DNA of 63,252 bases from Sulfuricaulis sp. (GCA_024654125.1 JANLIC010000007.1:1-63252); one strand, 5' to 3'; shown: positions 22,009 to 52,198, numbered from the stretch's first letter. The notes: a model not told the origin generated them from the sequence alone. Translations and numbers: made by a program.

Positions 22009-22069
22009 GGCGTCCCCAACTGGATTTGAACTCTATGCTGGTCGGTTGAGCCTGCCCTGGGCCGCTTGA
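22009..22069. repeat. att-like left arm of element A (tRNA-Glu 3' fragment plus about 40 bp), direct repeat of 52426-52486
   Basis: ggcgtccccaactggatttgaactctatgctggtcggttgagcctgccctgggccgcttga; 55/61 identical to 52426-52486 by manual alignment. Confidence 0.85.
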
Positions 22070-22178
22070 ACGTGTCGTTTACTTGGCGATAAGCCGCGAA
22101 ACCCCTAATCGGGTCTGGGGCATCACTAATCGTTGTCAAGTTTCCCTACGATACTTCAAAAAATCTTCTCCGCTGAAC

Positions 22179-22246
22179 GCGGGATTGACGTATTCAATGG
22201 GTTTGTCGAGGCCGGAAAAACTGGCGCTCATCACCGTATTCACGCT
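22179..22246 (-). pseudogene. Fragment of a paralogue of the PAS-GGDEF-EAL gene
   Basis: 56/68 nt identical to 21039-21106; reads SVNTVMSASFSGLDKPIEYVNPA. Confidence 0.7.
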
Positions 22247-22391
22247 TGTCACGACCCGCACGCACGCTCGCCAAGTCACGACAAATGTGCGATCCTTATC
22301 GGGCTTCGGCGACTTCAATACTTCCACAACCGCGCGTTTGCTCGCGGCCGGAATGGCAGCTGCTGGAGCGGAATCTCACTTAAGGACTCAA

Positions 22392-22813
22392 GGAAGGTCT
22401 GATTAATTGATGATTTTGGCAAAATCGATGCAATCCAGAGTCATAAATTTCACAATAAGATCACCGAAGAGATATCGGCGGACCCGATTCTCGCTTGCCT
22501 CATCGTTCTGGGGCGCCGCGCCCACATTACGCCCCCTGCAATCTCAGCAGATACCTTCTCGCCCAGACTGTGCGCCTCCAGCCGCTGGCGGAACTTGCAC
22601 ACCGTCTTCGGATAAAACGGCTCGATCAAGACACCCAGCTCGGCCCACGGCACCACGCGGTCCATCTCGGCGCGGAACTGCTCGCGGCGTGTCGGTTTGT
22701 AGTAGGCCTCGAAACTGGCTTCGGCAAAGGTCGCCTGCTGGGAACGCATCGGCGGAATCTCCATGAATTATTGTTCGATAGCCGTAAGAGTGGATGGATT
22801 AACCAGAGTTTCC
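22392..22813 (-). mobile_element. Internally deleted IS5-family element (422 bp)
   Basis: Imperfect terminal IRs ggaaggtctgattaa / ttaaccagagtttcc. Transposase remnant QATFA...KPTRREQFRAEMDRVVPWAEL..LIEPFYPK joined to TVCKFRQRLEAHSL. Confidence 0.82.
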
Positions 22814-22844
22814 TTGACTGAGAAATACCGGTTAGGAGGCCCGG

Positions 22845-24089
22845 GTGGATAGGGTGCGCGATCTGGTTGACCGCGCCTTCGACGCGGCCTTCGCCATTGA
22901 CGACCGCTGTCGAGTAACCGCCTTGAACGCGAAGGCGGAACAGTTGTTCGGCCACGCGTCAGACGAGGTGATCGGCCGGTGCTGTGGAGAAGTTCTTCAA
23001 GCCGTCTTGCCCGGCGGTGAGCCTCTCTGTGCCCCCAACTGTGAAGCCATCCGGTGTTTCCAGAGCTGCATGCCCTACGGCGTGCCGTCCTGCCGCATAC
23101 GGCGCAAAGATGGCGATTGGGTTTCGGTTGGTATCTCTTCGCTCGTCTTGTCAAGACGAGCCCGGGAGCCGCACCCCGGTTCAGTCGTTGCTGTTATTTT
23201 CCTGCACGAAAAAGAGCCAGGGCATATCCAGGCGCCGCCGCACGGAACAATGCAAGTTTTCATGCTCGGCGGTTTTGGCCTGGCGGTCGGAGGGCGTGGC
23301 GTCGATTTCGGAAAATGGAAACGCAAGCAGGCCGTGACGTTGTTGAAATACCTCGTCACTCAGGTCGGCCGCCAGGTCCACCGCGAGCGTATACTCGATT
23401 CCCTGTGGCCCAACGTCGACGAAGACCGCGGATGGGACCGGCTTAAAGTAACGATGTGCTACTTGCGGCGCCAGTTGTGCGTCAACGGCATGGGCGAAGA
23501 CGTTCTGAAAACGGTCGGGGACGCCTACCTCCTCAGGCGCGACGCGGTTTCGGTGGACGCGGAAACCTTTGAAAGGCTGGTCGCCGAGGGCGGGACACTA
23601 CAGCGATGCCAGCAATGGGATGAAGCGCTGCGCCGCTACAATGAAGCCGAGCACCTCTACCGCGGGGACTACCTGGAGGAAGACGCTTATACGGATTGGT
23701 GCGCCGAAGAGCGCGAGCGACTGCGCGAACTCTACCTGGAAATGCTTGCCGACATGGCGCAATGCAACGCCAAGCGTGGCCACTATGCCGAGGCGGCGCG
23801 GGTCTGCCGGAAGGCCCTTGTCCGCGAGCCGTGCCGGGAGAGCTTTCACCGCGCGCTGATGGAGTACCTCGCGTGGCTCGGCCATCCCGACCGCGCCGTG
23901 GCCCAGTTCCACGCCTGTCAGCGCGTGTTAGCACGGGAACTTGGTGTGGACCCGACGCCCGAGACGCAGCAACTATACCATCAAATCTTAGAGGGAGCGG
24001 CAAAAGCCAAAGCCAGTCGGCACCCTGCCTTGAGTGATCGCCTCCAACCCGAGACCTTGGCCTCGCCAGGCCAAGCCCCAGACCCCTAA
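22845..24089 (+). CDS. Cys-rich PAS + winged-helix + BTAD (SARP-family) transcriptional regulator
   Basis: N-terminal PAS, MLGGFGL..., LLKYL...VHRERILDSLWP, LYRGDYLEE...WC.EERERL, EPCRESFHRALM...ELGVDPTPET. Confidence 0.85.
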   Translation: MDRVRDLVDRAFDAAFAIDDRCRVTALNAKAEQLFGHASDEVIGRCCGEVLQAVLPGGEPLCAPNCEAIRCFQSCMPYGVPSCRIRRKDGDWVSVGISSLVLSRRAREPHPGSVVAVIFLHEKEPGHIQAPPHGTMQVFMLGGFGLAVGGRGVDFGKWKRKQAVTLLKYLVTQVGRQVHRERILDSLWPNVDEDRGWDRLKVTMCYLRRQLCVNGMGEDVLKTVGDAYLLRRDAVSVDAETFERLVAEGGTLQRCQQWDEALRRYNEAEHLYRGDYLEEDAYTDWCAEERERLRELYLEMLADMAQCNAKRGHYAEAARVCRKALVREPCRESFHRALMEYLAWLGHPDRAVAQFHACQRVLARELGVDPTPETQQLYHQILEGAAKAKASRHPALSDRLQPETLASPGQAPDP

Positions 24090-24204
24090 CCGAACGAACT
24101 CTACTCAGCTTTCCTGCCTCCGTTTAAATTTTTCTCGCCCTCGATCGCCCGGCCGCGGGCTTAGCTCGACACACCGGTCGAATTTCGCCGAGCGTCGCTT
24201 CCCA

Positions 24205-24228
24205 GTGTTACTGAATTGTTACCGGCAC
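24205..24228 (+). promoter_or_regulatory. Candidate operator box 1 (TGTYAC-N5-TGTYAC)
   Basis: GTGTTACTGAATTGTTACCGGCAC; near-identical copies at 40339-40362 (-) and 40472-40490 (+). Confidence 0.7.
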
Positions 24229-24349
24229 ATGATATTCATAATATTAACTTATGATGAGGAATTGAGGCGGGCGGTCGATTAATGGGCAGGTTTTATTGTC
24301 GGCGTCACTCTTTAATCAGTGACGCCGTTTCCATGGAGTCGCTTAGGCA

Positions 24350-24520
24350 ATGACAAACACTTTACAGAATAAAAAAATCACCAAAGAACATAGACCTAAT
24401 AATACCAAGGAGCATTCGAATTGGGGCGCCAAGCTTTTTGTTGGCACTTTGTTCGCGGTACTGGCGTTCTTTTGGTGGTTGCTCATTCATTCTGGCGGCG
24501 TCGGGGGACATCACGGTTAG
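24350..24520 (+). CDS. Small single-TM protein (56 aa), not in the ORF track
   Basis: MTNTLQNKK...WGAKLFVGTLFAVLAFFWWLLIHSGGVGGHHG; GGAG upstream; first ORF of the bd-like operon. Confidence 0.6.
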   Translation: MTNTLQNKKITKEHRPNNTKEHSNWGAKLFVGTLFAVLAFFWWLLIHSGGVGGHHG

Positions 24521-24559
24521 CCTGTTGGGCATCTTGATGTCTTCTCAAAGAGAGATTTT

Positions 24560-24712
24560 ATGAGCACAGCGAAACATAATCGACATTTAGGCAAAACGAT
24601 GACCTGGGCAGCCGCAATCGCCGTCGCACTGGTCGCTTTTTATTTCATGGACCATTTTGTCATGAGCATCCAGGGGTTGCCGCTTAACTGGAATCTCACC
24701 CCGGCGCAGTAA
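24560..24712 (+). CDS. Small single-TM protein (50 aa), not in the ORF track
   Basis: MSTAKHNRHLGKTMTWAAAIAVALVAFYFMDHFVMSIQGLPLNWNLTPAQ; purine-rich RBS-like agagag upstream. Confidence 0.6.
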   Translation: MSTAKHNRHLGKTMTWAAAIAVALVAFYFMDHFVMSIQGLPLNWNLTPAQ

Positions 24713-24731
24713 CGATCGGCATCCGGTTAAT

Positions 24732-26630
24732 TTGAAACGGCTAGGACAAAAAAAGGTGAAATCGGTTTTGTATTTCCCCTTACTGTGGACATGGCGTCGT
24801 GTGCTACTGGTCCTGATGACGGCGATCATCGGGCTCGGTGCCGGCGGATTTCCCTTCACGGCTTCGGCTGCCGACCCAGCGCAGGAGCAGCAGATTACCG
24901 CCGCTGACAGCGGGGGAATTACGGGTGAAACCAAGGCATCGCTCATCCTCGCGCCGAAACTCAAGCGCGCGGATTATCCAAATATAGGCGTGAGCAGCCG
25001 CGCCATTGTCTGGGTTGTCGCCCAGATGCACCTGTTTTTTGGCGCCTTGGTGCTGGCGGTTCCCATCTTCGTGCTGGTCATCGAATTCATCGGTTTCAAG
25101 ACCAACGATGATCGTTACGACGACATGGCGCATGAGTTTATGAAGATCAGCCTTACCGCCTACGCCATAACGGCGTTGTTCGGTGGCACTCTGGCGCTTT
25201 CCCTGTTTTTGCTCTACCCCGATTTTATGAACTATATGATGCGGGTATTCGGATCGCAGATGCTGGTCTATGCGGTTTTGTTTTTCCTTGAGAGCATGCT
25301 GCTCTATATCTATTACTACGGATGGAATGCCCTACGCTACGGCAATAGTAAGTGGGTTCACTTGACCTTGGGACTACTGCTAAACGCCGTCGGCACCACG
25401 CTGTTGGTGGTCGCCAACTCCTGGACAACTTTTATGATGGCACCTTCCGGGGTCGATTCGGCGGGCGCCGTGATCGGCAATATCTGGGAGATCATGAAAG
25501 GCCCGTTGTGGAACCCGTTAAACCTGCATCGCTTTATCGCCAACGTCGCCTTTGGCGGCGCGGTCGTGGGGGCGTATGCGGCCTTCAAGTTTCTCTGCGC
25601 AAAGACCGCCGCGGACAAGGCCCACTACGATTGGATGGGCTATACCTCGAATTTCATCGCGATACTCGCGTTCCTGCCATTACCGTTTGCCGGTTACTGG
25701 CTGATGGCCGAAATCTACGCATACTCCCAGCAGATGGGCATCCTGGCGATGGGCGGCATTCTGGCGTGGCTGTTCGTCATCCAGGCGGTGCTCATTTGCA
25801 CCATTTTGTTCGCCGGCAATTATTATCTCTGGTCCGGGATGGCACGCACCGAGGGCAGCGAACGCTACCAATGGCTAATTAAGTATATTGCTGTCGTGCT
25901 GGTGTTTGGTTTTCTTGTCTGGGTGACACCCCACAACGTGATTTTCACCACCAATGAAATCGCCAAATTGGGCGGCGGGCATCACCCCGTATTGGGACCC
26001 TTGGGCATCATGCCGGCAAAGAATATCGCCGTGTTTTTGATGCTCATCTTCACGTTTCTTTCCTTTCAAATCTATCGGCGCGCCGACAAGGTCATCACCG
26101 TCTCCTGGCAAGCTTGGGGTAACACGTTGATGGCCGCCATTTACATCGTGGCGTGCGCCAACGTGATTTTTGCCGGTGTCTACTACGGTTATTTCACCAA
26201 CACCGTCTATAAGGTGGGCTCCAGCGTCATGCAGGTGGCGTCCACGCTGGCTGTGATCGTCGCCGGGTCGGTGATCGACACGCTGATGTTCAAGGGGGCA
26301 AAAACCCTGCCGTCCTCTTGGGGCAAGGTTTCCGACCGCTCCCAATATGCCCTGTTCGCGCTGCCGGTTGCCTTTACCTGGCTGATGGCGCTGATGGGTT
26401 ATGTCCGTTCTTCCGTGCGCACTCACTGGCACGTGTACACGGTAATGAAGGACAACTCCCCCGATAATTTCATTCCCACGCTGGCAACCGTTGGCAACAC
26501 GGTCACCTTCGCGACCGTGTTATTTCTGATATTTCTGCTCTTTATTTTCTGGATCGCCAATTTGAGCGGCATTAAACAAAAACCTCCCGTCTCCGCGGGC
26601 AAAATCGTGCCGGCGGAAAGTGCGGCATGA
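24732..26630 (+). CDS. Cytochrome bd-like oxidase subunit I family protein (start uncertain)
   Basis: QMHLFFG (His in TM1), FFLES..LYIYYYGW, ANSWTTFMMAPSG, WNPLNLHRFIAN, MGYVRS; many TMs; no cydB follows. Confidence 0.82.
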   Translation: MKRLGQKKVKSVLYFPLLWTWRRVLLVLMTAIIGLGAGGFPFTASAADPAQEQQITAADSGGITGETKASLILAPKLKRADYPNIGVSSRAIVWVVAQMHLFFGALVLAVPIFVLVIEFIGFKTNDDRYDDMAHEFMKISLTAYAITALFGGTLALSLFLLYPDFMNYMMRVFGSQMLVYAVLFFLESMLLYIYYYGWNALRYGNSKWVHLTLGLLLNAVGTTLLVVANSWTTFMMAPSGVDSAGAVIGNIWEIMKGPLWNPLNLHRFIANVAFGGAVVGAYAAFKFLCAKTAADKAHYDWMGYTSNFIAILAFLPLPFAGYWLMAEIYAYSQQMGILAMGGILAWLFVIQAVLICTILFAGNYYLWSGMARTEGSERYQWLIKYIAVVLVFGFLVWVTPHNVIFTTNEIAKLGGGHHPVLGPLGIMPAKNIAVFLMLIFTFLSFQIYRRADKVITVSWQAWGNTLMAAIYIVACANVIFAGVYYGYFTNTVYKVGSSVMQVASTLAVIVAGSVIDTLMFKGAKTLPSSWGKVSDRSQYALFALPVAFTWLMALMGYVRSSVRTHWHVYTVMKDNSPDNFIPTLATVGNTVTFATVLFLIFLLFIFWIANLSGIKQKPPVSAGKIVPAESAA

Positions 26631-27454
26631 ATATATTGATAAAAACCCTGGGCTTCAGTCTCGCGCTGATCCTGACATTTACCGCCGTGAGTTACGTGCT
26701 TCCGCAGATGAAGGGCGAGGCGCCGGTGGAGAAAGAGATGGATGTGGGGGCATTGACCATGGATTCCTTCATTGCCATGGGAAAGGATTTATACCAGGGG
26801 AAGGGGACCTGCACGCTGTGCCACAATCAGCTCGGCCGGGCGCCCGACCTCCTGGCGCTCAATGTGGAAAAGACATCGTTGGAGCGGTTGGCGGATTCCC
26901 GCTACCAGGGCAAGGCCAAGAACACAGAAGGCTATCTGCGCGAGTCCATGCTGGAGCCGAATATTTATGTCGTCAAGGGGTTCGGTAAGAAGGGCACCAA
27001 CGATGCCGAGTCGCCCATGCCCGCCATCGACAAGCCCCCCGCCCAACTCTCCCAGGTGGAAATCGACGCCATCATCGCCTTTCTGCAGCACAAGGATGGC
27101 AACAAGGTGACCGTGGCGCTGCCAACGAAAACTTCTTTGCCCGCGGCGGCGGAGGAAAAAACCGCGCCGGCCAAACCCGCGCTTGCGCAAAGCCCCGAGG
27201 AGGCGATCGCAAAATTCGGTTGCGCCGCCTGTCATTCCATTCTGAAGACGGAATCAACGGTCGGACCGAACCTGAACGACGTCGGCAAGCGGCTAAGCAT
27301 CGCCCAGATCCGGGAGAGCATCATCGCGCCGGGCACGGTGATCGCCGAGGGTTATCCGCCCATCATGCCCGATCTTTCCGAAAAGATGACGACAAAAGAA
27401 TTGGAAATTATGGCGCAATTTCTGGCGCAACAAAAAACCAAGACGCAACCGTGA
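26627..27454 (+). CDS. Membrane-anchored diheme cytochrome c
   Basis: N-terminal TM, CTLCH and CAACH, YLRESMLEP and IRESIIAP motifs; ATGA overlap with the upstream gene. Confidence 0.88.
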   Translation: MNILIKTLGFSLALILTFTAVSYVLPQMKGEAPVEKEMDVGALTMDSFIAMGKDLYQGKGTCTLCHNQLGRAPDLLALNVEKTSLERLADSRYQGKAKNTEGYLRESMLEPNIYVVKGFGKKGTNDAESPMPAIDKPPAQLSQVEIDAIIAFLQHKDGNKVTVALPTKTSLPAAAEEKTAPAKPALAQSPEEAIAKFGCAACHSILKTESTVGPNLNDVGKRLSIAQIRESIIAPGTVIAEGYPPIMPDLSEKMTTKELEIMAQFLAQQKTKTQP

Positions 27455-29850
27455 ATTGGAAGATATCCGCTTTTTGGCAGGCTGTTACCGTGGTTGTTTG
27501 CGCCTGGTTGATTTTCAACTGGGCCTTTCCGCCATTTATGCCGAGGTCATTGATGATCACCTTTATGGTCATCACGGTCATCGGTGTCATTCTTTACTTC
27601 TCCAGCGAGGATCGGCGTTGGAGCGAATTCAAGGCGCCGATCATCGCCACGCTGCGTGACGACGGCAAACAGACGCTGCGCTGGGCCTTGCTTATTTTCA
27701 TACCGCTTTTGTTCGGCTATACCGCATACGATGCGGTGAAACCCTCGTTCGAAACCCCGATGGAGCTGCGTCAGGTCCATCCCGCCCCACCCGCCTCCCT
27801 ACGGGTTTACGACAAAAGTTATGACCTGGCGACACTCGAGAACCCGCTGCGGTTAAAAATATTAGAACAACTCAACAGCAACCCGGATCTGGCGTGGGAG
27901 AATTACAAGAAGACAGTGCATGCGGGAAGTACGGTCTATTTCCGCAACTGCTTTTATTGCCACGGCGATCTCCTGGGGGGAGAGGGGCATTTCGCCAAGG
28001 GTTTCGATCCCCTCCCCACCGACTTCCGGGACGTGGGCACGATCGCGCAGCTGCAGGAGTCTTTCCTGTTCTGGCGCATCACCACCGGTGGGCCCGGATT
28101 GCCCCAGGGCGGGATGCCGTGGAAATCGGCCATGCCGGTTTGGCACGAGATGCTGAGCGAGGAGGAAGTCTGGCAGGTAATCACCTTTCTCTATGACTAT
28201 GTGGAGCAAGTGCCGCGCATGTGGGATCAAGCAACCTCCAGGGCGGTCAGCGGGATGAAGGACAAGATCGCCTCAGAACGGGCCAAGATGACCAGCGAGG
28301 AGATCTACCAGTTTCGTTGCGCCGTGTGTCACGGCGAGGAAGGTGCGGGGGACGGGCCGGCGGCCGAGTTCCTCAACCCGCGGCCGCGGGATTTCACCCA
28401 AGGATTCTTGAAATACAAGACCTCGCCCGGTGCGCGTCCGCCGCGCGACGAGGATCTGTTCAACATTATTAAATATGGTTTGGTCGGTACCAGCATGCCG
28501 GGGTGGTCGGAGGTGCTGAGCGATGCGCAGATCAACGACCTGATTACGCTCATGAAGAGCTTCGATACCTCCTACACCTGGGCGCCAGTGGATGCCCCAG
28601 AGGAAGACTTTGACGAGGACGGCCGTTACCGGAAATCCGATTTCAAGGTCGTCACCGAACGGGAGCCGACCGACGGCCAGGTTCCCTACTCACCCGAATC
28701 CATCGCCCGGGGTAAGGAGGTGTTTGAGGAAAACTGCGAGAAATGTCACGGCGTCGGAGGCCGCGGTGACATCACTTCCGGCGAGTTCTTGGACGATGAC
28801 TGGGGCTACCGCGTCTGGGCGCGCGACCTGACCAAGCCCTGGACCTGGCGGATAACCGAGGTAGGGTCCGGAAACGACAACAAGAACCGGGATGAAACGA
28901 TCCGAAATATCTACACGCGCCTCTCGGTCGGCATACCGGGTACCCCGATGCCTGCGCATCGCGCCACCGAGGAGGGAGAGGAGGACTCGATCACCCTGGA
29001 GGACCGTTGGCATGTTGCTAACTACACCTATTCATTGCGTAGCAACCGTTCCGCGCCCGGCAAGAGCACGGTGATTGAAGGCGTGGAGGTGGCGAGCGAA
29101 TTGCCCAAAAGCGTGGCGGATGAGGCCTGGCAGCAGGCGCCGGCCACCTCCTTTCGGTTGGTGCCCAATATCATAAAAGAGAAGCGCCTGTTCACGCCGC
29201 TCAATAATGCGATAACCGTGCAAGCCCTTTACAACGACCGCGAGATCGCCTTTTTGCTGGAGGTGAACGACCGCACCGACAGCCGCCCCGGCGGACCGGT
29301 GACCGAGCGTTTCCCAGATGGCGCGGACCGGACCGTGTATCCCGACGCTGTTGCGATCCAATTTCCAAAACAGGGTGCCTACTCGACGGCACCGGTTGAA
29401 AAACCCCTATACCGCCACGGGGACCCAGAACATCCCACCACCATCTGGTATTGGAACGCCGGCTCGGTGAAACCCGCGATTGAGCCGCGGGCCGTGCTAC
29501 TGGATGCGACCGGTCCCGATACCAAGCTGATCACGCGTGCGAGTGGCAATGACCTTGCAGCGAGCGGCAAGTGGGAGGACGGCCGCTGGCGCGTGCTGAT
29601 GAAACGCCCGCGTAACAGCAACGGCTTGCAGGACATGAGCTTTCCCAAAGGGCAATTCATCCCGGTGTCGTTTGCGAACTGGGATGGGAACAACGGCGAG
29701 ATCGGCTCCAAACACACCATGACGACGTGGGTCTGGCTGCTACTGCCACCGGATATCGATTACACCCGGGTCTATGGCATCCCCCTGGGGACCATTGTGG
29801 GTAGCTTCCTGGCAGGTATCCTGTTGGTCCGGACCCAACGGCGAAAATAG
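27451..29850 (+). CDS. Membrane triheme cytochrome c fused to an ethylbenzene-dehydrogenase-gamma-like (heme b) domain
   Basis: GTG start overlaps the upstream stop; three N-terminal TMs; CFYCH, CAVCH, CEKCH; DAVAIQFP...IWYW...GKWEDGRWRVLMKR...FANWDGNNGEIGSKH; C-terminal TM. Confidence 0.82.
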   Translation: MNWKISAFWQAVTVVVCAWLIFNWAFPPFMPRSLMITFMVITVIGVILYFSSEDRRWSEFKAPIIATLRDDGKQTLRWALLIFIPLLFGYTAYDAVKPSFETPMELRQVHPAPPASLRVYDKSYDLATLENPLRLKILEQLNSNPDLAWENYKKTVHAGSTVYFRNCFYCHGDLLGGEGHFAKGFDPLPTDFRDVGTIAQLQESFLFWRITTGGPGLPQGGMPWKSAMPVWHEMLSEEEVWQVITFLYDYVEQVPRMWDQATSRAVSGMKDKIASERAKMTSEEIYQFRCAVCHGEEGAGDGPAAEFLNPRPRDFTQGFLKYKTSPGARPPRDEDLFNIIKYGLVGTSMPGWSEVLSDAQINDLITLMKSFDTSYTWAPVDAPEEDFDEDGRYRKSDFKVVTEREPTDGQVPYSPESIARGKEVFEENCEKCHGVGGRGDITSGEFLDDDWGYRVWARDLTKPWTWRITEVGSGNDNKNRDETIRNIYTRLSVGIPGTPMPAHRATEEGEEDSITLEDRWHVANYTYSLRSNRSAPGKSTVIEGVEVASELPKSVADEAWQQAPATSFRLVPNIIKEKRLFTPLNNAITVQALYNDREIAFLLEVNDRTDSRPGGPVTERFPDGADRTVYPDAVAIQFPKQGAYSTAPVEKPLYRHGDPEHPTTIWYWNAGSVKPAIEPRAVLLDATGPDTKLITRASGNDLAASGKWEDGRWRVLMKRPRNSNGLQDMSFPKGQFIPVSFANWDGNNGEIGSKHTMTTWVWLLLPPDIDYTRVYGIPLGTIVGSFLAGILLVRTQRRK

Positions 29851-29863
29851 TATTTGGACCTAA

Positions 29864-30004: not shown

Positions 30005-30011
30005 CTAACCG

Positions 30012-30419
30012 TTATATCCCGCTCTTGTTCCCACTGAAGATCCGGTGCTGCCGCGCCGCCTTGGTCACCGCCTCGATCAACTTCTCTTTTTCCACCGGCT
30101 TGACGAGATATTCGACGACGCCATCCTTCAAGAACTCCACGGCCAGGTTCATATCCGGGTAACCCGTCAGTACGATCACAGGAGTGGAAGAATATTCCCG
30201 GCGGAAATAGGCGACCGCTTCCACGCCGTTGATCTTGGGCATCCGGATATCGCAGATGATCACATCCACCGCCAAGGGATTGTCCAAGGCATTGAGGAGT
30301 TTGATCCCCTTTTCTCCGTTCTCTGCCTCTATCACCTCATAATCCGTTCCCCTGAGTTGGAGCCGGACTGTTTTACGGACCTCTTCCTCGTCATCGATAA
30401 CTAGCACCTTGTGTAACAT
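30012..30419 (-). CDS. Stand-alone response regulator receiver
   Basis: VLVIDDE, CDIRMPKING, VLTG, YLVKP; no output domain. Confidence 0.9.
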   Translation of the reverse strand: MLHKVLVIDDEEEVRKTVRLQLRGTDYEVIEAENGEKGIKLLNALDNPLAVDVIICDIRMPKINGVEAVAYFRREYSSTPVIVLTGYPDMNLAVEFLKDGVVEYLVKPVEKEKLIEAVTKAARQHRIFSGNKSGI

Positions 30420-30433
30420 TCCAACCCCTCCTT

Positions 30434-32551: not shown

Positions 32552-32585
32552 TTGACAGCTCCTTAAGTAAACCTTGGAAAACGTC

Positions 32586-34091: not shown

Positions 34092-34108
34092 GATTCTTTC
34101 TCTCGTGA

Positions 34109-35011: not shown

Positions 35012-35023
35012 GTCAATAGAGCG

Positions 35024-36310: not shown

Positions 36311-36331
36311 AGTCACGATCTCTCTGCAAGG

Positions 36332-36679: not shown

Positions 36680-36685
36680 CGCCGG

Positions 36686-40338: not shown

Positions 40339-40362
40339 GTGCCGGTGACAATCCAGTAACAC
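40339..40362 (-). promoter_or_regulatory. Candidate operator box 2, upstream of nxrA
   Basis: Minus strand GTGTTACTGGATTGTCACCGGCAC, 22/24 identical to box 1, followed by TGGTAGTTT (extended -10-like). Confidence 0.7.
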
Positions 40363-40471
40363 TCAGCATTACCGTTCCCTCCGTTGAAACTTTTCTCACC
40401 CTTGCGCCTTTAATAATGACGGCGGGCTGGGTTCGACATGCCCGCCGATAGTCGCCGGGCATCGCCGCCAG

Positions 40472-40490
40472 GTGTTACTGAATTGTCACC
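40472..40490 (+). promoter_or_regulatory. Candidate operator box 3, upstream of the Usp/radical-SAM operon
   Basis: GTGTTACTGAATTGTCACC followed at the same spacing by TGGTAGT. Confidence 0.7.
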
Positions 40491-41072: not shown

Positions 41073-41085
41073 GGTTAGAAAGGTC

Positions 41086-43395: not shown

Positions 43396-43400
43396 GACGA

Positions 43401-44723: not shown

Positions 44724-46138
44724 CCGGCATCGACGTCCTGGTGGTAGGCGGTGGGATCTCGGGTCTGTCCAGCGCTTGGTGGCTGGCCCGCGCCGGGTTT
44801 TCGGTGGAGGTATGGGAGGCCGGAGATCGCCCAGGCGGGAAAATCTTAAGCCAACGCCAAGACGGCTATCTTACGGAACGTGCGGCGGCGATGGTCATGA
44901 ACTTCCGCCCCGAGGTCGTTGAGTTGGTGCGCGAAGCCGGTCTGGAACCGGCCAAAACCAAACGTTCGCCGGCTGCCGCGGCACGTCGCTACTTGTTGCA
45001 TCAGGGACGACTGGAAAGCCTGCCCATGCGTCTTGGGGCGTTCATGACCTCCCCGCTGTGGAGCCTGCGCGGCAAGCTGCGCATGCTGGCAGAACCCTTT
45101 ATTCCAGCGAGCGGCGATGAAAATGAAAGCGTGAGTCAATTCATCACCCGACGTCTGGGCCGGGAAGTACTGGAAAAAGCCATGGAACCGTTCGTGGCCG
45201 GGACCCTGGCGGCTGACCCCGACCGGGCCTGCGCCGCGTCTACGCTTCCCCGGCTTACTGCGCTGGAACGACGTTACGGCAGCATCACCGCCGGCATTGT
45301 GGCGAACCGCCTGCTGCACCGGCGCCAGGGCTGTGTCACCGATACGTTTTCATTCCAGGGCGGCATGAATACCCTAATAAATAATCTGGCCCGAACCCAT
45401 GGGGTCCAGTTGTACACCCGCCACACCGTCCAGGAGCTGGTCCGCGAGCAAACCGGCTGGCGGGTGACGGCCATGACACCGGCGGGTGAACGGTCCCTGC
45501 AGGTGCCCCGGGTCGTGCTTGCGACCCCCGCCCCCGCGGCGGCCTCGTTGCTTGCAGGCTTGGATGCGGAGTTGGCTGACCTGCTGCGCGGGATCCGCTA
45601 CGCGCCGGTTACCGTAGTGCATCTGGGGCTGGATCGGGCCAGCGTGCAGCATCCGTTGGACGGTACCGGGTTTCTGGTCCCCAGGCAGGAAGGCCGGCAT
45701 CTGACGGGCAACCTGTGGATGAGCACCCTGTTCCCGAACCGGGCGCCCGCGGGCAAGGTTCTGTTGTGCGCCTACCTCGGGGGCGCGCGCTCACCCGAGG
45801 TACGGGACTGGGACGATAATCATATCGTGGCCGAGACATTACGCGCGCTGCGCAAATATCTGGGGCTCAAGGCCGAACCGGAGATGGTCCGCATCGATCG
45901 ACACCCGCAGGCCTTGCCTCTCTATCACGGCGCCTACCAAGCGCGCATGCAGGCGATCGGAGCCCGCCTAAGCAAATTCTCGGGGCTTTACTTGGAGGCC
46001 AACTACCAAGGCGGGGTGTCGGTGCGCGACCGCATTGCCCGTGGCCGTACACTGGCAAAGCAGATCCAGGCAGCGGAGCGCCACGCGCCTGGCCGCCTTG
46101 CACCTCTCGCTCTTCCGGCTCTGGGGCCAGACGGCTGA
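44720..46138 (+). CDS. hemY: Protoporphyrinogen/coproporphyrinogen oxidase, HemY type
   Basis: VVGGGISGL FAD motif, ESVSQFITRRLG, PLDGTGFLVP, STLFPNRAP, ALPLY..G. Confidence 0.85.
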   Translation: MTGIDVLVVGGGISGLSSAWWLARAGFSVEVWEAGDRPGGKILSQRQDGYLTERAAAMVMNFRPEVVELVREAGLEPAKTKRSPAAAARRYLLHQGRLESLPMRLGAFMTSPLWSLRGKLRMLAEPFIPASGDENESVSQFITRRLGREVLEKAMEPFVAGTLAADPDRACAASTLPRLTALERRYGSITAGIVANRLLHRRQGCVTDTFSFQGGMNTLINNLARTHGVQLYTRHTVQELVREQTGWRVTAMTPAGERSLQVPRVVLATPAPAAASLLAGLDAELADLLRGIRYAPVTVVHLGLDRASVQHPLDGTGFLVPRQEGRHLTGNLWMSTLFPNRAPAGKVLLCAYLGGARSPEVRDWDDNHIVAETLRALRKYLGLKAEPEMVRIDRHPQALPLYHGAYQARMQAIGARLSKFSGLYLEANYQGGVSVRDRIARGRTLAKQIQAAERHAPGRLAPLALPALGPDG

Positions 46139-46312: not shown

Positions 46313-47123
46313 ATGGATGCGCACTCTCGCCAGCGTACGGAGCGCGCGCGGCACGGCGCCGCGTACGAATCCCAAGCAATCTGTTTTTTCTGGTATGTAC
46401 CGGCCGCGGCGTTACCCAGACGGATCTTTCCGCGGCGGCTTACGAGGAGACGCTGTGCGACATAGACCGGTTGCAACGGGAACGACCGTCGTTAAGGATT
46501 CGCGCGCGCTGCGCGCCCTACATGCATGCGGCGCGTGCGGGGGTTGCACGTGGGTGAACAGGGCGAGGGTTATGCCGAGTGGCCCAGCGCCTGCCTGGCT
46601 GGGAGAAAATATTTTCGTATTACACCGCAGGGGACCGTTACCCCTTGCCCCTACCTGCCTGGAACCGTTGGCGATTTGCGTACCCAGACGTTGCGGGGAG
46701 TCTGGGAGCAAAACGTTGAACTACAGCGTTTGCGCACGGAATATCCCGGCGGCAAGTGCGGGGCGTGCGATTATCGCCTGAGCTGCGGCGGCTGCCGCGC
46801 GCGCGCTTATGCCGCCTGCGGCGACATCATGGCCGAGGATCCGAAGTGTCCTTATATACCCGCCGCAGACGCCGGACCTGAAACCCGGATCGAGCCGGCG
46901 GCTCCGCCGCTCACGTGGACACCCGAGGCGCGTGCGCGGCTGACGCGCATCCCGGCATTTCTGCGCGGGGCGGATCCGGGCGCGACTCGAAGAGCGCGCG
47001 CGGGCGCAGGGGTTGAGCGAAATCGGCACTGAGTTTATGGCCGCCCACCGACCCGGATTCCTGACCGAAACGGTACACCATACCGGCGCGGTCATCGCGG
47101 GCGAGCCGATGCAGGACAAATGA
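46313..47123 (+). pseudogene. Second radical SAM/SPASM-PCP_red paralogue, with an internal deletion and two frameshifts
   Basis: N-terminus jumps to NLFFLVCTGRG...IRARCAPYM (CxxxCxxC region lost); catg duplication near 46521-46528; CLAG..YFRITPQG, CGACDYRLSCGGCRAR; extra G near 46966-46969. Confidence 0.8.
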
Positions 47124-47265
47124 AAGGATATCGGTAATCTCACGGTCTTATAATGTGTATCCAGATCGAGGCAGAGTCCGCGTTCCCTCGGCTGGGTGTG
47201 GAGCGTGCGCGGTGCGACTGTGTGTGAATCCCAAGTGTGTTTTTCCATAGCATAGGAGGAGTGAA

Positions 47266-47541
47266 ATGAAAGATAGCAATGCGTTGATAAGAGCTGCACT
47301 GATAGGTCTCGTGGCAATGGGTGTCGGTGCGTTTACCATGACTGCTTCGGCTGGCAAAGCCGGCATGGAGAAGTGCGCCGGCATCGTCAAGGCCGGCAAG
47401 AACGACTGCGGCACCAGCGCCCATGCCTGCGCCGGCCAGTCCACGAAGAACGGCGACGCCCAGGAATGGGTCTACGTCCCGGTCGGCACCTGCGACAAGA
47501 TCGTCGGCGCGAAAGTCGTGGCGGCGGCGCCGAAGAAGTAA
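47266..47541 (+). CDS. DUF2282 / BufA1-type bufferin precursor peptide
   Basis: Signal peptide plus [15 protein letters not shown]...HACAGQS...[15 protein letters not shown] (four Cys); strong RBS aggagg. Confidence 0.88.
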
Positions 47542-47544
47542 GCC

Positions 47545-48045
47545 ATGCCGCCGGGCCGGCGATGTTCGCCGGTGCCGGCGGCTCGTTGCGGCCATCCCAC
47601 TATGCGTGTAACCGGTCTGGGCTTCGGTATTCTGGTCGTGGCGACGCTTAATCTTCTCGGCGCCGCCGCGGCCGGCGAGGCCGGGTCGCCGGGCTGGCGC
47701 GAATGGTCGCCGCAAGTGTTCGAGCAGGCCCGGCGCGAATCGCGATTGGTGCTGCTCGACGTGGTCGCCGAGTGGTGCCAGCTCTGCAAGAAAATGGATC
47801 TCACCGCCTATCGCGATCCGAAGGTGCTCGGGCTGATCGGACAACGTTATATCGCGGTTCGCGCCGACATCGATAAGGAACCGGAGATCAGGCAACGTTA
47901 CGGCGACTACGGCGTGCCGGCGGTGGTCATCCTCGACGGCGGAGGCAACGAGATCATCAGGCGCCGGGGCTACCTCACGCCGGAATGGCTGTACTGGATG
48001 CTGGTGGCGGTGGCTGACAATCCCGACCCTGCGGCCCACCGCTAG
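47545..48045 (+). CDS. Thioredoxin-like (DUF255-type) exported protein (start may be 47602)
   Basis: W..W....FEQARRESRLVLLDVVAEWCQLCKKMD...YGVPAVVIL. Confidence 0.78.
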   Translation: MPPGRRCSPVPAARCGHPTMRVTGLGFGILVVATLNLLGAAAAGEAGSPGWREWSPQVFEQARRESRLVLLDVVAEWCQLCKKMDLTAYRDPKVLGLIGQRYIAVRADIDKEPEIRQRYGDYGVPAVVILDGGGNEIIRRRGYLTPEWLYWMLVAVADNPDPAAHR

Positions 48046-48077
48046 TGTCGTGCCTCGCAAATAACTTTCTTAAGTTC

Positions 48078-48308
48078 GTAGCCTGGATGGAGCGCAGCGA
48101 CAAAATCGTTGGGTGAGGCGGGGTCTTCGCGAACATAATGTATGTTCGCGCCGCCGAACGGGTGCGACGGGTTTGGTTGCACCCCGGGCAGCAACGTTGG
48201 ACAGCCGAAGGCTGACCCGCAGGGCGGAGTCCAGGGACGGACTCCGCCAATCCAGGTAATCGCGAAGAAACCCCCGGATTGCGGCATGGCGTGCCTCCAT
48301 CGGGCTAC
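48078..48308. repeat. GTAG-type REP-like composite palindrome
   Basis: gtagcctggatggag ... ctccatcgggctac inverted ends enclosing several hairpins. Confidence 0.55.
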
Positions 48309-48377
48309 AAGAGGAGTAATTTTCGATTCGTGAATTATGTAATTTATTTCTGGGACACGACACTAGGATAAAGAACG

Positions 48378-48917
48378 ATGGACCGGCGTACGTTTCTCAT
48401 CCACTTCGGGGGCCTCGCGGCGGCACCAGCACTGTCGTCGCTGCTCACCGGCTGTGCCTCGCCGGTGCGCGAGGCACTTGCCCCGCCGCCCGGGTTTGAC
48501 TGGCGAACGCTCGCGGCGGTGCAGGCGCACTTGCTGCCCTCCGAGTCCAGCGCGCCGGGCGCCCGCGAGATTCACGCCGAGGCGTATCTGCGCGGGGTGC
48601 TCGCCGACCCGAAACTCGCCCCCGCCGACCGCGCATTTCTGATCGATGGTGTGGAGTCGATCGGCAAACTCGCGCGCGGCATGACCGGCAAACATTTCGT
48701 CGAGTTATCGCACGATGAACGCGAAGCCGTTTTGCGCGGCTTCGGGGAGATGCCCGAGGGCGAGCGCTGGCTCGAAGAGATGCTCGGCTACCTGATGGAG
48801 GCGCTGCTCGGCGATCCGGTCTACGGTGGGAATCCGGACGGTGTCGGCTGGCAGTGGCTGGCGCACAACCCGGGTTTCCCGCGACCGCCGGCGGACAAGC
48901 GCTACTTTCTATTATGA
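48378..48917 (+). CDS. Gluconate 2-dehydrogenase subunit 3 family protein (Tat)
   Basis: MDRRTFL, PGARE, DPVYGGNPDGVGWQWL. Confidence 0.85.
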   Translation: MDRRTFLIHFGGLAAAPALSSLLTGCASPVREALAPPPGFDWRTLAAVQAHLLPSESSAPGAREIHAEAYLRGVLADPKLAPADRAFLIDGVESIGKLARGMTGKHFVELSHDEREAVLRGFGEMPEGERWLEEMLGYLMEALLGDPVYGGNPDGVGWQWLAHNPGFPRPPADKRYFLL

Positions 48918-50596
48918 GAGACGAGTTCGATATCTGCGTGATCGGCGGCGGCGCGGGTGGCGGTGTGGCGGCGTTCGCGCTGGCGCAGGCCGGTTACGAC
49001 GTTGTCATCCTCGAAAAAGGGCCGTGGCTCACCGAGAAGGATTTCTACAAGGACGAGATCGCCTGCTGCCGTCGGCGCACGTACGTCCCCGACCTCAAGG
49101 ACGAGCCGCATGTGATCGAGACGCGGGAGGAAGACGATCAGCCCTGGCGGGCGCGGCCGACGCCGGGGTCCGGCTGGGATTTCTGGAACGGCAACTGCGT
49201 CGGCGGCTCGTCGAATTTCATGAGCGGCTTTTTTCACCGATTGAAGCCGGTGGATTTCCAGCTGCGTTCGAGCTTCGGTCCGATCGAGGGCGCCAACGTC
49301 GTCGACTGGCCGATTTCTTATGATGATCTCGAACCTTATTATGCAAAGGTCGAGCGCGAAGTGGGCGTCTCGGGCCGGATCGTGCCACACCCGCAGCTCG
49401 AGCCGCGCAGCACGCCGGACTTTCCTTATCCGCCGACGCGCGAGCACCCGATCGCCGGGCTGATCGATGCGTCTTGCAAGAAGCTCGGTTACCACTCGAT
49501 CCCCACCGCGCGCGCGATCCTGTCGCAGCCGGCCATGGGTCGCGGGAGTTGCAGCTACAACGGTTACTGCGGCAGTTACGGCTGCGCCACCGGCGCCAAG
49601 GGCGGCGCGCGTGCCGCGCTCATCGATCGCGCGGTGGCCGGCGGCCGCTGCGAGGTGCGCGCCCATAGTATGGTGGCAAGGCTCGTGAGCGACCGGACCG
49701 GCAAGGTCAGCGCGGCGGAGTACTTCGACAAAAACGGCGTGCGCCGGCGGGTGACCGCGCGCGTCTACGTGGTCGCCTGCCAGGCGATCGAAACCGCGCG
49801 GCTGTTGTTGCGTTCGACCGGCCCGCGTCATCCCCAGGGGCTCGCCAACGGCAGCGGCCAGGTCGGCAGGAACCTGTTGTTCGCCGCGGGTGGCGCCGGC
49901 TCCGGGCGATTGTCTTACAGGAAATTCGGCGAGTCGCTGCATGAGTTCGGTACTTTCGTCAATCGCGCGCTGCTGGATTGGTACGTGATCGACGACCCCG
50001 AATTCGGCCCACGTCAGAAAGGCGGAACGATAGACTTTGTGCATGCGCATCCCGCCCCGATCGCGCGCGCCACGAGCCAGCTGCGCCGCGGCGGCCGGCT
50101 CGTCTGGGGCGCGGAGCTCAAGCGCAACCTCGAGGCGCATTTCCGCGAGGGGCGCGACGTCAAGATCGAGGCCTTCTGCGACTGGCTGCCGCACGACGAC
50201 TGTTACGTCACCCTCGATCCGCGCGTGAAAGACAAGTGGGGACTGCCGGTGGCGCGTGTGCGCGTGGATTTCCACCCGCACAATCTCCAGGTCGGCTGGT
50301 ACCTCGCCGAGAAGGGCGCGCGGGTACTGAAAGAGTTGGGCGCCGAGGACGTGGTGTCCTTCGCCGTCGGTTCGCCGCCGACCAATCTCCAGGCCGGCGG
50401 TTGCCGTTTCGGGAAGGATCCGAAGACCTCGGTGCTGGATCCCGACTGCCGCGCGCACGAGGCGGAGAATCTGTTCGTCACCGACGGCAGCTTCATGCCC
50501 ACGGCGGGCAGCGCGCCCTATACCTTCACGATCTACGCCAACGCCTTCCGCGTGGCCGACCGCATCAAGGCGCAGCTCGGCGGGAGCCGCGCATGA
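48914..50596 (+). CDS. GMC-family flavoprotein oxidoreductase
   Basis: VIGGGAGGG, VGGSS, DWPISYDDLEPYY, C...G.C...GC cluster, GCRFG.DPKTSVLD, NLFVTDGSFMPT. Confidence 0.88.
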   Translation: MRDEFDICVIGGGAGGGVAAFALAQAGYDVVILEKGPWLTEKDFYKDEIACCRRRTYVPDLKDEPHVIETREEDDQPWRARPTPGSGWDFWNGNCVGGSSNFMSGFFHRLKPVDFQLRSSFGPIEGANVVDWPISYDDLEPYYAKVEREVGVSGRIVPHPQLEPRSTPDFPYPPTREHPIAGLIDASCKKLGYHSIPTARAILSQPAMGRGSCSYNGYCGSYGCATGAKGGARAALIDRAVAGGRCEVRAHSMVARLVSDRTGKVSAAEYFDKNGVRRRVTARVYVVACQAIETARLLLRSTGPRHPQGLANGSGQVGRNLLFAAGGAGSGRLSYRKFGESLHEFGTFVNRALLDWYVIDDPEFGPRQKGGTIDFVHAHPAPIARATSQLRRGGRLVWGAELKRNLEAHFREGRDVKIEAFCDWLPHDDCYVTLDPRVKDKWGLPVARVRVDFHPHNLQVGWYLAEKGARVLKELGAEDVVSFAVGSPPTNLQAGGCRFGKDPKTSVLDPDCRAHEAENLFVTDGSFMPTAGSAPYTFTIYANAFRVADRIKAQLGGSRA

Positions 50597-51591
50597 CGGC
50601 GACGCTCGTCGATTCCTTCGGCCGGCGCATCGAGTACCTGCGCGTATCGGTCACCGACCGCTGCAACTATCGCTGCTTCTACTGCATGCCCGCGACGGGC
50701 GTAGCGTACGGGCGGCACGAGGAGTTCCTGCGCCACGAGGAAATGGCGCGACTGGTGCGGCTGTTCGCCGAGCTCGGCGTGCACAAGGTCAGACTCACCG
50801 GTGGCGAACCGTTGGTGCGCCGCGGTATCGTGGACCTCGCCGGCCTGATCGGCCGCATCCCCGGCATCACCGACCTGTCGTTGTCCACGAACGGCCATCT
50901 GCTGGAGCGTCACGCCGCAGCGCTGAAGGCCGCCGGCGTCGCGCGCGTGAACATCTCGCTCGATTCGCTCGACCCCGATACGTTCGCGCGGATCACCCGC
51001 GGCGGCGATCTCGGGCACGCATGGCGCGGCATCGAGGCGGCGCTGACGGTGGGGATGACGCCGGTCAAGCTCAACATGGTGGTGCTCAAGGGGATCAACG
51101 ACCGCGAAATCGAGTCGATGCTGGATTTCGCGCTCGCGCGCGGCGCGCACCTGCGCTACATAGAAACCATGCCGGTAGGCGAGGCCGGCGCTCAAGGAAT
51201 GGAACATTATTATTCGGCCGACGCCATCCTCGCACGCGTGCGCAAGAAAGCCAGCGCGGAGTTGATCCCAGTGAAGGGCGCGCCGGGCGCCGGGCCGGCG
51301 CGCTGTTACCGGATCGGCGCCGGGCCCGCGACCGTCGGGATCATCTCCGCGATCTCGCGCCACTTCTGCGAGGGCTGCAATCGCGTGCGCCTGACGGCTA
51401 AGGGGGAGTTGGTGCTTTGCCTGGGCCAGGACCAGCGCGTGTCGCTGGCCGCGGCGCTACGGACCGGCGCGTCGGACCTCGATCTCAAGGATCTTATCGC
51501 GGGCGCGATTGCGCAAAAACCGAAACGGCATCGCTTTGCCGGACAGGGTGCATGTCACCCCATTCATAAGATGTCGGTGCTGGGCGGGTAG
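50593..51591 (+). CDS. moaA: GTP 3',8-cyclase MoaA
   Basis: [36 protein letters not shown]...CL, C-terminal MSVLGG. Confidence 0.95.
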
Positions 51592-51601
51592 GAGGCGAAT
51601 T

Positions 51602-51717
51602 GTGGTCGAGGTCGGATATCCACGCCGGCTCGATGCGCCCCGCGAGCGCCTTGAGTTGACGCAGATAATCCCGGTTGAGCGGGTCGTGCGATCCGATGGA
51701 GAGGATACGCCGTGCAT
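51602..51717 (-). pseudogene. Fragment of a DUF692 / MNIO (BufB-type) gene
   Basis: Minus strand reads MHGVS-(1-nt deletion)[30 protein letters not shown]. Confidence 0.78.
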
Positions 51718-51864
51718 CGCGTCGTCAATCAACACCTCCGTCCGCGACAGACCTTTATCGGTGTGCTGCCGGGCGGTGTGTCGCAGGTAATCGTTGAGCT
51801 CGGGGTTGCCGTAGTCGAAGCCTTCCCGGTGGTGCCAGCGGCTTAGGGGCTCAATCCAGAGCAT
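51718..51864 (-). pseudogene. Truncated GNAT-family toxin (TacT/AtaT type)
   Basis: IEPL...HHREGFDYGNPELNDYLRHTARQH..KGLSRT.V, then fused to the DUF692 fragment. Confidence 0.72.
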
Positions 51865-52050
51865 TCAGGGCCGAGCGCCGGTAGGCCGCGACCGCTTTCT
51901 TCAACCGCTTATTGGGCGCGGGCGGATTTTCCAAAGCCTTGAAAAACGCCTCCGCGTCGCGGCAGCTCAGGCGAACAAATCGCTCCCGCTCCAGCACCGC
52001 GTGTGCCTCCTTGAGCGCCGCCTGTACCACAAACTGGTCAACGTCGCGCC
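51851..52050 (-). pseudogene. N-terminally truncated DUF1778 antitoxin
   Basis: DQFVVQAALKEAHAVLERERFVRLS.RDAEAFFKALENPPAPNKRLKKA; overlaps the GNAT start. Confidence 0.75.
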
Positions 52051-52106
52051 CGGTCGTTTCCGTCGATGTTACGACGCGGCACCTTGGAAAAGCTTCTGCT
52101 GTCAGC

Positions 52107-52198
52107 TTGAAATGAGAAAAAACCAGCAAGGCGTTTAAAACCGGATTTCTCTAGCACGTTGTTTTAAAAGAAAAACTGGGCGTCCCCAAGGGGATTCG
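52107..52198. repeat. Right arm of element A, homologous to 60169-60257, ending in a tRNA-Glu 3' fragment
   Basis: aaccagca..cgtt.aaa.cg.at...tag..cgttgtt....aaga.aaa..gggcgtccccaagg.gattcg is shared; last 47 nt 38/47 identical. Confidence 0.75.

Follow-up and report, generated by a model that had tools for sequence, protein, structure and literature searches.

A tRNA-Glu-borne island in a Sulfuricaulis genome carries a predicted periplasmic nitrite oxidoreductase-type module of a distinct, uncharacterised clade

In a 63,252-nucleotide stretch of Sulfuricaulis sp. DNA (GCA_024654125.1 JANLIC010000007.1:1-63252; hereafter the window), positions 22009 to 52198 form an island that carries a module of genes for an enzyme of the nitrite oxidoreductase (NXR) type. 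From its sequence, this enzyme is predicted to be a periplasmic molybdoenzyme and belongs to a distinct, uncharacterised clade; the module was acquired horizontally at a tRNA-Glu gene. We consider it about an even chance (probability roughly 0.5) that the enzyme works in this sulfur oxidiser mainly as a quinol-fed periplasmic nitrate reductase; as a preliminary description of the window had already held, the direction of the reaction cannot be read from sequence. The genes named there (nxrA, nxrB, a chaperone, two c-heme/heme-b proteins, a bd-like protein and a diheme cytochrome) were all recovered within the island. The conserved core comprises three operons (24350-29850, rightward; 40234-31817, leftward; 41086-46138, rightward), with a regulator of PAS, winged helix-turn-helix (wHTH) and BTAD domains before the first.

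22845..24089, (+), PAS-wHTH-BTAD (SARP-like) regulator
24350..24712, (+), pair of small membrane peptides of 56 and 50 aa, whose DNA is conserved in genome G664
24732..26630, (+), CydA-like (OR-N-type) membrane protein, ~13-14 helices
26627..27454, (+), diheme cytochrome c, membrane-anchored
27451..29850, (+), triheme c and heme-b (EB_dh) domain protein, membrane-anchored, His/Lys at the heme-b ligand positions, alt-NxrC-like
31817..32551, (-), cupredoxin-like secreted protein with a conserved His/Cys/His/Met type-1-copper-like site
32586..34151, (-), NxrC-like protein: signal peptide, two c hemes, heme-b domain with Met/Lys ligands
34109..35011, (-), TorD/NarJ-type chaperone
35024..36316, (-), NxrB-like Fe-S subunit; the Asp45 of N. 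defluvii NxrB is Cys here
36332..36679, (-), 115-aa conserved protein of no known family, present in 60/73 related loci
36686..40234, (-), NxrA-like catalytic subunit, 1182 aa, twin-arginine translocation (Tat) leader
41086..46138, (+), Usp/PCP_red-domain protein, AhbD/NirJ2-like radical SAM protein and HemY; part of the conserved core

The best match of the window NxrA in the PDB was Kuenenia NxrA (7b04_B, 1558.7 bits), with the next solved relative at 186 bits. The protein carries the twin-arginine leader, the motif CAPNDTHMC and the molybdenum (Mo)-ligand Asp within TWRGD; the ligands of iron-sulfur cluster FS0 fall at Cys90, Asp94 and Cys98, with Asn93 beside them and the Mo ligand at Asp300. 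All of the Kuenenia residues that we checked (Cys67, Asn70, Asp71, Cys75, Asp275, Asn312, Glu527 and Lys917, Kuenenia numbering) are conserved. Just before the Mo ligand, Kuenenia Asn269 is replaced by Glu294 and His273 by Arg298, and we take position 269 to be that of the tunnel-gating Phe of perchlorate reductase. This Glu/Arg signature was found in 120/120 of the homologues nearest to the window NxrA, and Asn/His in 120/120 of those nearest to an anammox query. In the subclade of the window NxrA, Gly and Ala replace the tunnel-mouth acids Asp611 and Glu1088, the Asp611 position being Gly in Nitrospinota-type sequences as well. The catalytic residues and tunnel-mouth acids considered here are those named for Kuenenia NXR in PMC8387239 (this and the other papers are cited for the parts of their text that were accessible); Tyr528 of the Kuenenia supplement could not be mapped under the numbering used and was excluded.

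A scan of species genomes yielded 73 loci at 61–91% NxrA identity, drawn from the best 80 of 119 stretches and distributed among Planctomycetota, Latescibacterota, Lentisphaeria, Kiritimatiellia, Ignavibacteria, Marinimicrobia, Myxococcota, Binatia, Methylomirabilota and the alpha-, beta- and gammaproteobacteria. These were placed in three trees, one of 125 rows by FastTree, from which incomplete and duplicated rows and 15 nearly identical Nitrospinota rows had been removed, and two of 38 and 44 rows by IQ-TREE (LG+G4), rooted on distant periplasmic homologues at 37–41% identity to the window NxrA. The anammox references, drawn from Planctomycetota, were anchored on L192, which matches 7b04_B end to end at 2763 bits, and the Nitrospinota-type references come from genomes of the phylum to which a record labelled Nitrospina belongs. 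In all three trees, the window NxrA and the scan loci formed one clade with support of 1.0 or 100 (SH-aLRT 100), lying inside the periplasmic NXR radiation and separate from the Nitrospinota and anammox groups, to which the window NxrA is 55–57% and 57–59% identical, respectively; the sister group of the Glu/Arg clade differed among the trees. Membership in the broad radiation, as first proposed, is thus borne out by the trees: the window NxrA groups with anammox and Nitrospina NxrA, apart from NarG, PcrA, SerA and EbdA, and not in a non-NXR type II clade. It shares with that radiation the Tat leader, the three-Cys/one-Asp FS0, the Mo-ligand Asp, Asn70, Asn312 and Lys917, and is encoded together with NxrB, a heme-b gamma subunit and a TorD-like chaperone.

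The suggestion that this lineage is typical of Nitrospira, Nitrospina and anammox bacteria did not hold, as the window enzyme belongs to a separate clade that is common in non-nitrifiers. Forcing the window NxrA and its two closest relatives into Nitrospinota was rejected (approximately unbiased test, p 4e-99), as was forcing them into the anammox group (p 8e-7), whose Asn269/His273 is replaced by Glu/Arg here. A Nitrospira-type NXR was likewise not indicated, because the window NxrB has Cys in place of Asp45 and because L208, a Nitrospira proxy whose NxrB has the Asp, branches far from the window NxrA; the use of a proxy makes the monophyly half of this comparison weaker. The proxy (G431:C194) is itself an NxrA/NxrB pair with an N. 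defluvii-type Asp in a genome from the host's order, and may reflect transfer or contamination of the bin (5%).

We found no close NxrA in the 20 other genomes of the genus (0/20, none above 40%), and none above 62% identity in the 102 other genomes of the order. Only 2 of 400 genomes of the class have a 91% match, namely G664 and G606, the latter apparently the genome of locus L013. This distribution rejects vertical inheritance, and the syntenic descent within the host family that the preliminary description had raised against itself did not appear. In G664, a gammaproteobacterium of another family (98% complete), the genes from the BTAD regulator through hemY have identical order and orientation. 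DNA identity to the window is 78–82% for the regulator with the two electron-transfer operons and 66–72% for the heme genes, and protein identity is 90% for NxrA, 88% for NxrB and 88% for the CydA-like protein, compared with 79% for RecA, 63% for AlaS and 74% for aspartokinase. The G664 copy lacks the kinase/regulator pair, the GMC genes and moaA, and the core was therefore defined as ~23 kb. It is located between tRNA-Ser and tRNA-Arg; no att duplication was found around it, and our statement on its location is therefore limited to these two tRNA genes. The L013 locus is 82–83% identical in DNA to the window over 7.8 kb. Separately, contig C19 of G017, a member of the host genus, has a back-to-back pair of divergent operons for type II DMSO reductases (L106-L107), with a moaA 68% identical to that of the island.

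The borders of the island, and those of a second element beside it, are as follows.

22009..22069, unstranded, distal att-like copy of the tRNA-Glu 3' end (21/25) and element end shared with 52426-52486
22176..22246, unstranded, part-copy of the flanking GGDEF gene within the island, 82% (source part 21036-21106)
22450-22764, transposase-like remnant near the GGDEF part-copy, no Pfam match
51457..52129, (-), remnant toxin-antitoxin pair: TacA antitoxin match, partner fragment without match
52135..52198, unstranded, proximal element end and att-like tRNA-Glu 3' copy (52178-52198, 20/21)
52426..60236, unstranded, second tandem element with ends identical in kind: soxB, chrB, chrA, superoxide dismutase (SOD), rhodanese, ChrB-C protein and major facilitator superfamily (MFS) transporter
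60237..60313, (-), intact tRNA-Glu(TTC), the integration target (tRNA call and comparison with the empty site in G017)

Copies of the tRNA-Glu 3' end are located at 22009, 52178 and 52426, and, together with the tRNA itself, they account for four of the five near matches in the whole genome (first 10 bases at 9/10 or better), so that the att-like repeats are above chance expectation. The adjoining sequences also repeat (22009-22069 against 52426-52486, 61 nt, 90% alike; 52135-52198 against 60194-60257, 64 nt, 78% alike), and we therefore recognise two same-ended elements in tandem, a 30 kb element bearing the NXR genes and an 8 kb element with soxB and chromate-resistance genes, the latter sitting between the NXR island and the intact tRNA-Glu. 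The repeats on which the island had first been delimited are thus real, but both of its borders are 3'-end fragments, and the intact tRNA lies past the 8 kb element. Consistent with integration at this site, an empty tRNA-Glu site, which the preliminary description had proposed to look for in relatives, was found in G017 (same genus, 99% complete): the island-flanking GGDEF gene lies ~100 bp from tRNA-Glu there, compared with 39 kb in the window, and the terminator preceding the 22009 copy resembles the one after tRNA-Glu in the empty site. A third genome, G013, holds 14 kb of other genes at its tRNA-Glu site. Horizontal acquisition, as originally claimed, is upheld by the empty site and by the lack of a close NxrA elsewhere in the genus.

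The tyrosine integrase family (PF00589) had four matches in the genome and none on the NXR contig, in a search that did not extend to serine recombinases, and the elements may therefore be stranded or have been moved in trans. The GC content at third codon positions (GC3) of the core is 0.72–0.74, inside the 0.68–0.82 of flanking host genes. To check the left junction, contigs of groundwater runs X1-X4 (two studies) were aligned to 16000-35900: long pieces from X1-X3, mostly 96–99.8% alike, lie between 22.6 and 35.9 kb, and no contig of X1-X4 bridged the junction; the host flank was almost uncovered, which in itself proves nothing. The remnant at 22450-22764 is presumably transposase-like, and the GGDEF part-copy may be a trace of inexact excision from a related host at an earlier time.

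The island appears to have its own control circuit, with predicted sites at these positions.

24206..24222, (+), 17-bp direct-repeat box TGT(T/C)AC-N5-TGT(T/C)AC before the bd-like operon
40345..40489, two more 17-bp boxes: 40345-40361 (-) facing nxrA and 40473-40489 (+) facing the usp operon

These three boxes, one ahead of each operon, are three of only four strict matches in the genome, against 0.01 expected in the window. Three boxes stand at equivalent places in G664, two each in L013 and L014, and one upstream of the bd-like operon in eight further proteobacterial loci. The box is likely the site of the BTAD regulator, and its 11-bp spacing presumably fits winged-helix binding of the SARP type. 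Five Cys in the PAS domain of this regulator are invariant in 11/11 aligned sequences, and the protein is likely a redox or ligand sensor. Overall, the island is likely co-regulated as one unit. Its regulatory genes number three (BTAD regulator, histidine kinase and response regulator) rather than the two first counted.

The CydA-like protein keeps His100, His266 and Glu187, with Tyr180 at the Glu99/101 position, and has a partial fold likeness to cytochrome bd subunit I (TM-score ~0.35); with its ~14 helices and heme-b His ligands it conforms to the OR-N type. The host genome (88% complete) yielded neither a CydB nor a second CydA-like partner, and 19 of the 22 proteobacterial carriers with a CydA-like match have a single copy. 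Within 10 kb on each side of the NXR genes, a CydA-like gene occurs in 19/28 proteobacterial loci compared with 1/45 others, and usp, radical SAM and hemY genes occur in 22–23/28 proteobacterial loci, many of which end early. An OR-N1/OR-N2 pair has been proposed as terminal oxidase in Nitrospirales and Nitrospinota (PMC12342949, PMC10839748, bioRxiv 2021.01.16.426971), and a quinone-linked role was proposed for the CydA-like subunit, also noted in anaerobic Kuenenia (PMC3578206). In the betaproteobacterial carrier G107:C35, the module CydA-like gene and a canonical narG are ~10 kb apart, and the contig has another CydA-like gene.

The host is, by its gene content, a predicted sulfur-oxidising autotroph, in agreement with the sulfur oxidiser first suggested. 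Its GltX has its best named matches in 'Sulfuricaulis sp.' at 91%, and its genome contains RuBisCO in two pieces, dsrAB, two soxB, an aa3 oxidase and cd1 nitrite reductase genes (NirS). The quinol-dependent nitric oxide reductase (qNor) is split into two open reading frames (L179:2632-4828, G000:C17) by a frameshift or an assembly error. At 88% completeness, narG, napA, nosZ and chlorite dismutase were not found in it. Fragments on C178 and C334 encode a second Tat-exported system of the NXR/NAR family, 38–40% identical to the window NxrA; this system (C178, L006; C334) is 94% identical to a copy in G469, of the same order and another family, and 74% to that of G017, and has possibly moved recently.

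In the reading that we prefer, NxrAB would be exported by Tat and pair with the diheme-c subunit that bears the Met/Lys heme-b domain, and the CydA-like protein and the two membrane-anchored cytochromes would connect NxrABC to the quinone pool. Sulfur oxidation (Dsr, Sox) would then supply the electrons that reduce nitrate to nitrite in the periplasm, from where NirS and qNor would continue, with the Cys-rich PAS/BTAD regulator turning on the three operons together and the radical SAM/HemY genes topping up heme b. The NirS-type genes and split qNor of the host, and the failure to find narG or napA in it, support nitrate reduction. Among the 26 proteobacterial carriers, host included, 17 have narG above the cut-off, 17 a strong cd1-nitrite-reductase match and 22 one or both, with cd1 lacking a narG match in five. 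A strong RuBisCO match was found in just 8 of 50 other carriers tested (42/50 without; other fixation pathways were untested), and the neighbours that recur across the 73 loci, in the non-proteobacterial ones, include genes for Rrf2 regulators (10 loci), Fe-S repair proteins of the RIC type (8) and qNor (4). Perfect matches to the FNR consensus immediately precede the BTAD regulator in L038 and L050. The single CydA-like copy of most proteobacterial carriers, set against the pair proposed for the oxidase, and the quinone-linked role proposed for this subunit also count for nitrate reduction. The Kuenenia enzyme works both ways (PMC8387239); as enzymes of this type are reversible, some nitrite oxidation under oxygen may also occur.

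Several results weigh against mainly nitrate reduction. narG is already present in 17/26 proteobacterial carriers, including G664 with the nearest full module, and the package therefore often fills no gap; in the host itself, the second periplasmic system (C178, C334) could reduce nitrate. With an aa3 oxidase and RuBisCO, the host could also gain from oxidising nitrite. An FNR scan allowing one mismatch gave no box in the window island, and none was found upstream of BTAD in five of the seven other loci checked. Tyr180 had been considered as proof of lost oxidase activity and was rejected, because G043 has Tyr at the Glu99/101 position in both of its CydA-like copies and Tyr is therefore no sign of oxidase loss. 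The Glu/Arg clade branches, with weak support (92 and 88), within a set of lineages in which the characterised members are nitrite oxidisers. Finally, the carriers are related metagenome-assembled genomes (MAGs) from similar habitats and so are not independent.

It is possible, with odds clearly below those of nitrate reduction, that the module is instead a portable nitrite-oxidation chain running from NXR through c-type cytochromes or the cupredoxin to the CydA-like protein or host aa3, which would make the host a facultative nitrite oxidiser. All of the checked Kuenenia catalytic residues are kept, the accessory set is the same as that tied to nitrite oxidation in PMC3578206, and the co-occurrence of narG in 17/26 carriers suggests a different role from nitrate reduction; RuBisCO is found in the host, G664 and G042, and aa3 oxidase in the host. 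These points are offset by the 42 carriers without a strong RuBisCO match, by the single CydA-like subunit, by the denitrifier context of the carriers (narG and/or nirS) and by chlorite dismutase, found in 0/5 genomes and listed among the traits of nitrite-oxidising bacteria (NOB) in PMC12342949. A bolder version, which we hold still more tentatively, is that a transferable cassette of ~23 kb, with its own sensor, promoter box, electron chain and heme genes, passes among unrelated Gammaproteobacteria and makes sulfur oxidisers/denitrifiers that fix carbon by the Calvin-Benson-Bassham (CBB) cycle into facultative nitrite oxidisers; the NXR of that cassette would carry a Glu/Arg active-site variant found in no characterised nitrifier.

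It is unlikely that the Glu/Arg clade has come to act on a different oxyanion, or to detoxify, with nitrate and nitrite converted on the side. The clade-wide swap to Glu294/Arg298 adjoins the Mo ligand, the tunnel-mouth acids are Gly and Ala here, and the enzyme is redundant with narG, all of which would fit such a shift; yet Asp611 is Gly in Nitrospinota-type sequences too, none of the five genomes tested has the chlorite dismutase expected with a (per)chlorate-reduction island, no arsenic, selenium or iodate genes are prominent among the neighbour families present in at least 4 of the 73 loci (seven families named), and the NO-stress neighbours point to nitrogen oxides. It is very improbable that the island results from chimeric assembly or is a decayed passenger, without a role in the host: the unbridged left junction, a right junction without a read test and margins with broken genes and no integrase are outweighed by att-type tRNA duplications at both ends where G017 has an empty site, by core genes that are all intact, by three boxes conserved in G664 and by a core GC3 within the flanking host range.

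The system resembles Kuenenia stuttgartiensis NXR-ABC (PDB 7B04; PMC8387239) in its type II DMSO-reductase fold, its three-Cys/one-Asp FS0, Asn70, Asp275, Asn312 and Lys917, its Met/Lys heme-b gamma domain and the clustering of chaperone, cytochromes, cupredoxin-like and bd-like genes. It differs in NxrA identity (57–59%), the Glu/Arg signature, the lost tunnel-mouth acids, a gamma subunit with two c hemes, and the dedicated BTAD regulator, heme genes and tRNA island in a sulfur oxidiser. With the Nitrospina/Nitrospira periplasmic NXR that has alt_NxrC and OR-N CydAA' (PMC3578206, PMC10839748, PMC12342949) it shares a Tat-exported NxrA, alternative gamma subunits with c heme and heme b, and a bd-like protein of ~14 helices, whereas the window enzyme is only 55–57% identical to Nitrospinota-type NxrA in a separate clade, its NxrB lacks the N. 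defluvii Asp45, it has one CydA-like gene and not a pair, and its host fixes carbon by CBB and not by the reductive tricarboxylic acid cycle. The Nitrotoga/Hydrogenobacter-type NXR/NAR (PMC6050957, which defines the NXR types) is also periplasmic and Tat-exported, with oxidisers and reducers mixed in one clade; the root group at 37–41% was taken as that clade, without a named reference, and the host's second system groups with it by identity.

The enzyme clade is partly known, because papers on MAGs had already noted members: sequences with the isolate labels DTUPRO3, OFTM248/77/9/220/100 and ERR599109_bin.11 fall within the Glu/Arg clade. A periplasmic NXR of the NOB/anammox group was described in four proteobacterial MAGs (PRO3/6/11/12), with the direction left open (PMC9306079), such an NXR was noted in Planctomycetota MAGs (OFTM; PMC10732223), and ERR599109_bin11 was an exception among Nitrospinia (PMC10839748). 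In what was accessible of them, these papers on non-nitrifier MAGs likewise leave the direction open. Similar genes in non-nitrifiers or unassigned lineages appear in PMC10359470, PMC4830246 and bioRxiv 2020.05.19.103440, and the novel lineage from an oxygen minimum zone in PMC4830246 possibly belongs to the Glu/Arg clade; the accessible parts of PMC12532881, PMC13335318, PMC7358590 and bioRxiv 2021.10.13.464073 added nothing on it. In the literature searched, which took in few subscription journals and neither figure alignments nor bioRxiv supplements, the parts available gave no account of the signature, of a regulated proteobacterial package with its box or of a Sulfuricaulis island.

Metagenome studies often count the whole radiation as nxrA, and name the carriers as new nitrite oxidisers or leave the direction open. 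The two-residue signature is a marker that would split the Glu/Arg clade from Nitrospina-type and anammox enzymes in such counts, and the direction can be tested with so compact a package, which has a predicted regulator and box and has passed from one gammaproteobacterial family to another. If nitrite oxidation is true, the second step of nitrification would be a portable trait; if nitrate reduction is true, nxrA-based estimates of nitrite oxidisers would be inflated in groundwater, oxygen minimum zones and anammox reactors.

The remaining genes of the island lie outside the conserved core.

30012..31615, (-), PAS histidine kinase and stand-alone response regulator, missing from the G664 copy
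46378..51591, (+), high-GC extras: broken radical SAM paralogue, DUF2282, thioredoxin-like, gluconate-dehydrogenase-like small subunit, GMC oxidoreductase and moaA
50593-51591, (+), moaA

The first gene list was incomplete, since the repeats also enclose GMC, thioredoxin-like, DUF2282 and TacA-remnant genes. Its heme genes stand, with hemY above the family cut-off, an AhbD/NirJ2-like radical SAM gene below it and, in addition, a broken paralogue; its molybdenum cofactor genes reduce to the one moaA, of which the host has its own copy. The island had been called self-contained with its own cofactor supply, which was overstated, given that moaA is outside the core and that no partner was found for the CydA-like subunit. 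The Usp/radical SAM/HemY operon is likely a supply of heme b. The two proteins with c hemes and a heme-b domain, NxrC-like and alt-NxrC-like, have 2 and 3 CxxCH motifs, respectively, the latter likely starting at GTG 27451. The proposed cupredoxin-like protein has a conserved His...Cys-x2-His-x2-Met site and is not called a cupredoxin by Pfam. A single-sequence model of the 115-aa protein (pLDDT 67.5) gave no fold match.

Some further observations concern the module genes and their surroundings. The protein with Usp and PCP_red repeats (41086-43395) has many invariant His and Cys in 25 aligned sequences, is usually encoded beside radical SAM/hemY and perhaps handles porphyrin or metal; its gene contains a 21-nt perfect inverted pair (42365-42451). 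Inverted repeats at 48042-48366 have 32-nt arms around a 261-nt insert resembling a repetitive extragenic palindrome or miniature inverted-repeat transposable element, between the thioredoxin-like and GMC genes. Between the two att copies, 52199-52425 is a 228-bp remnant, possibly of a third, deleted element, with a further degenerate att-like stretch near 52376. The soxB of the second element (52426-60236) is 73% identical to the copy on C172; the element, whose other genes form the cluster chrB-chrA-SOD-rhodanese-chrB(C)-MFS, has high GC3 (0.89 in soxB). Left of tRNA-Arg/Ser, 733-6728 holds low-GC (43–50%) genes for export of the exopolysaccharide/PEP-CTERM type, possibly another acquired block.

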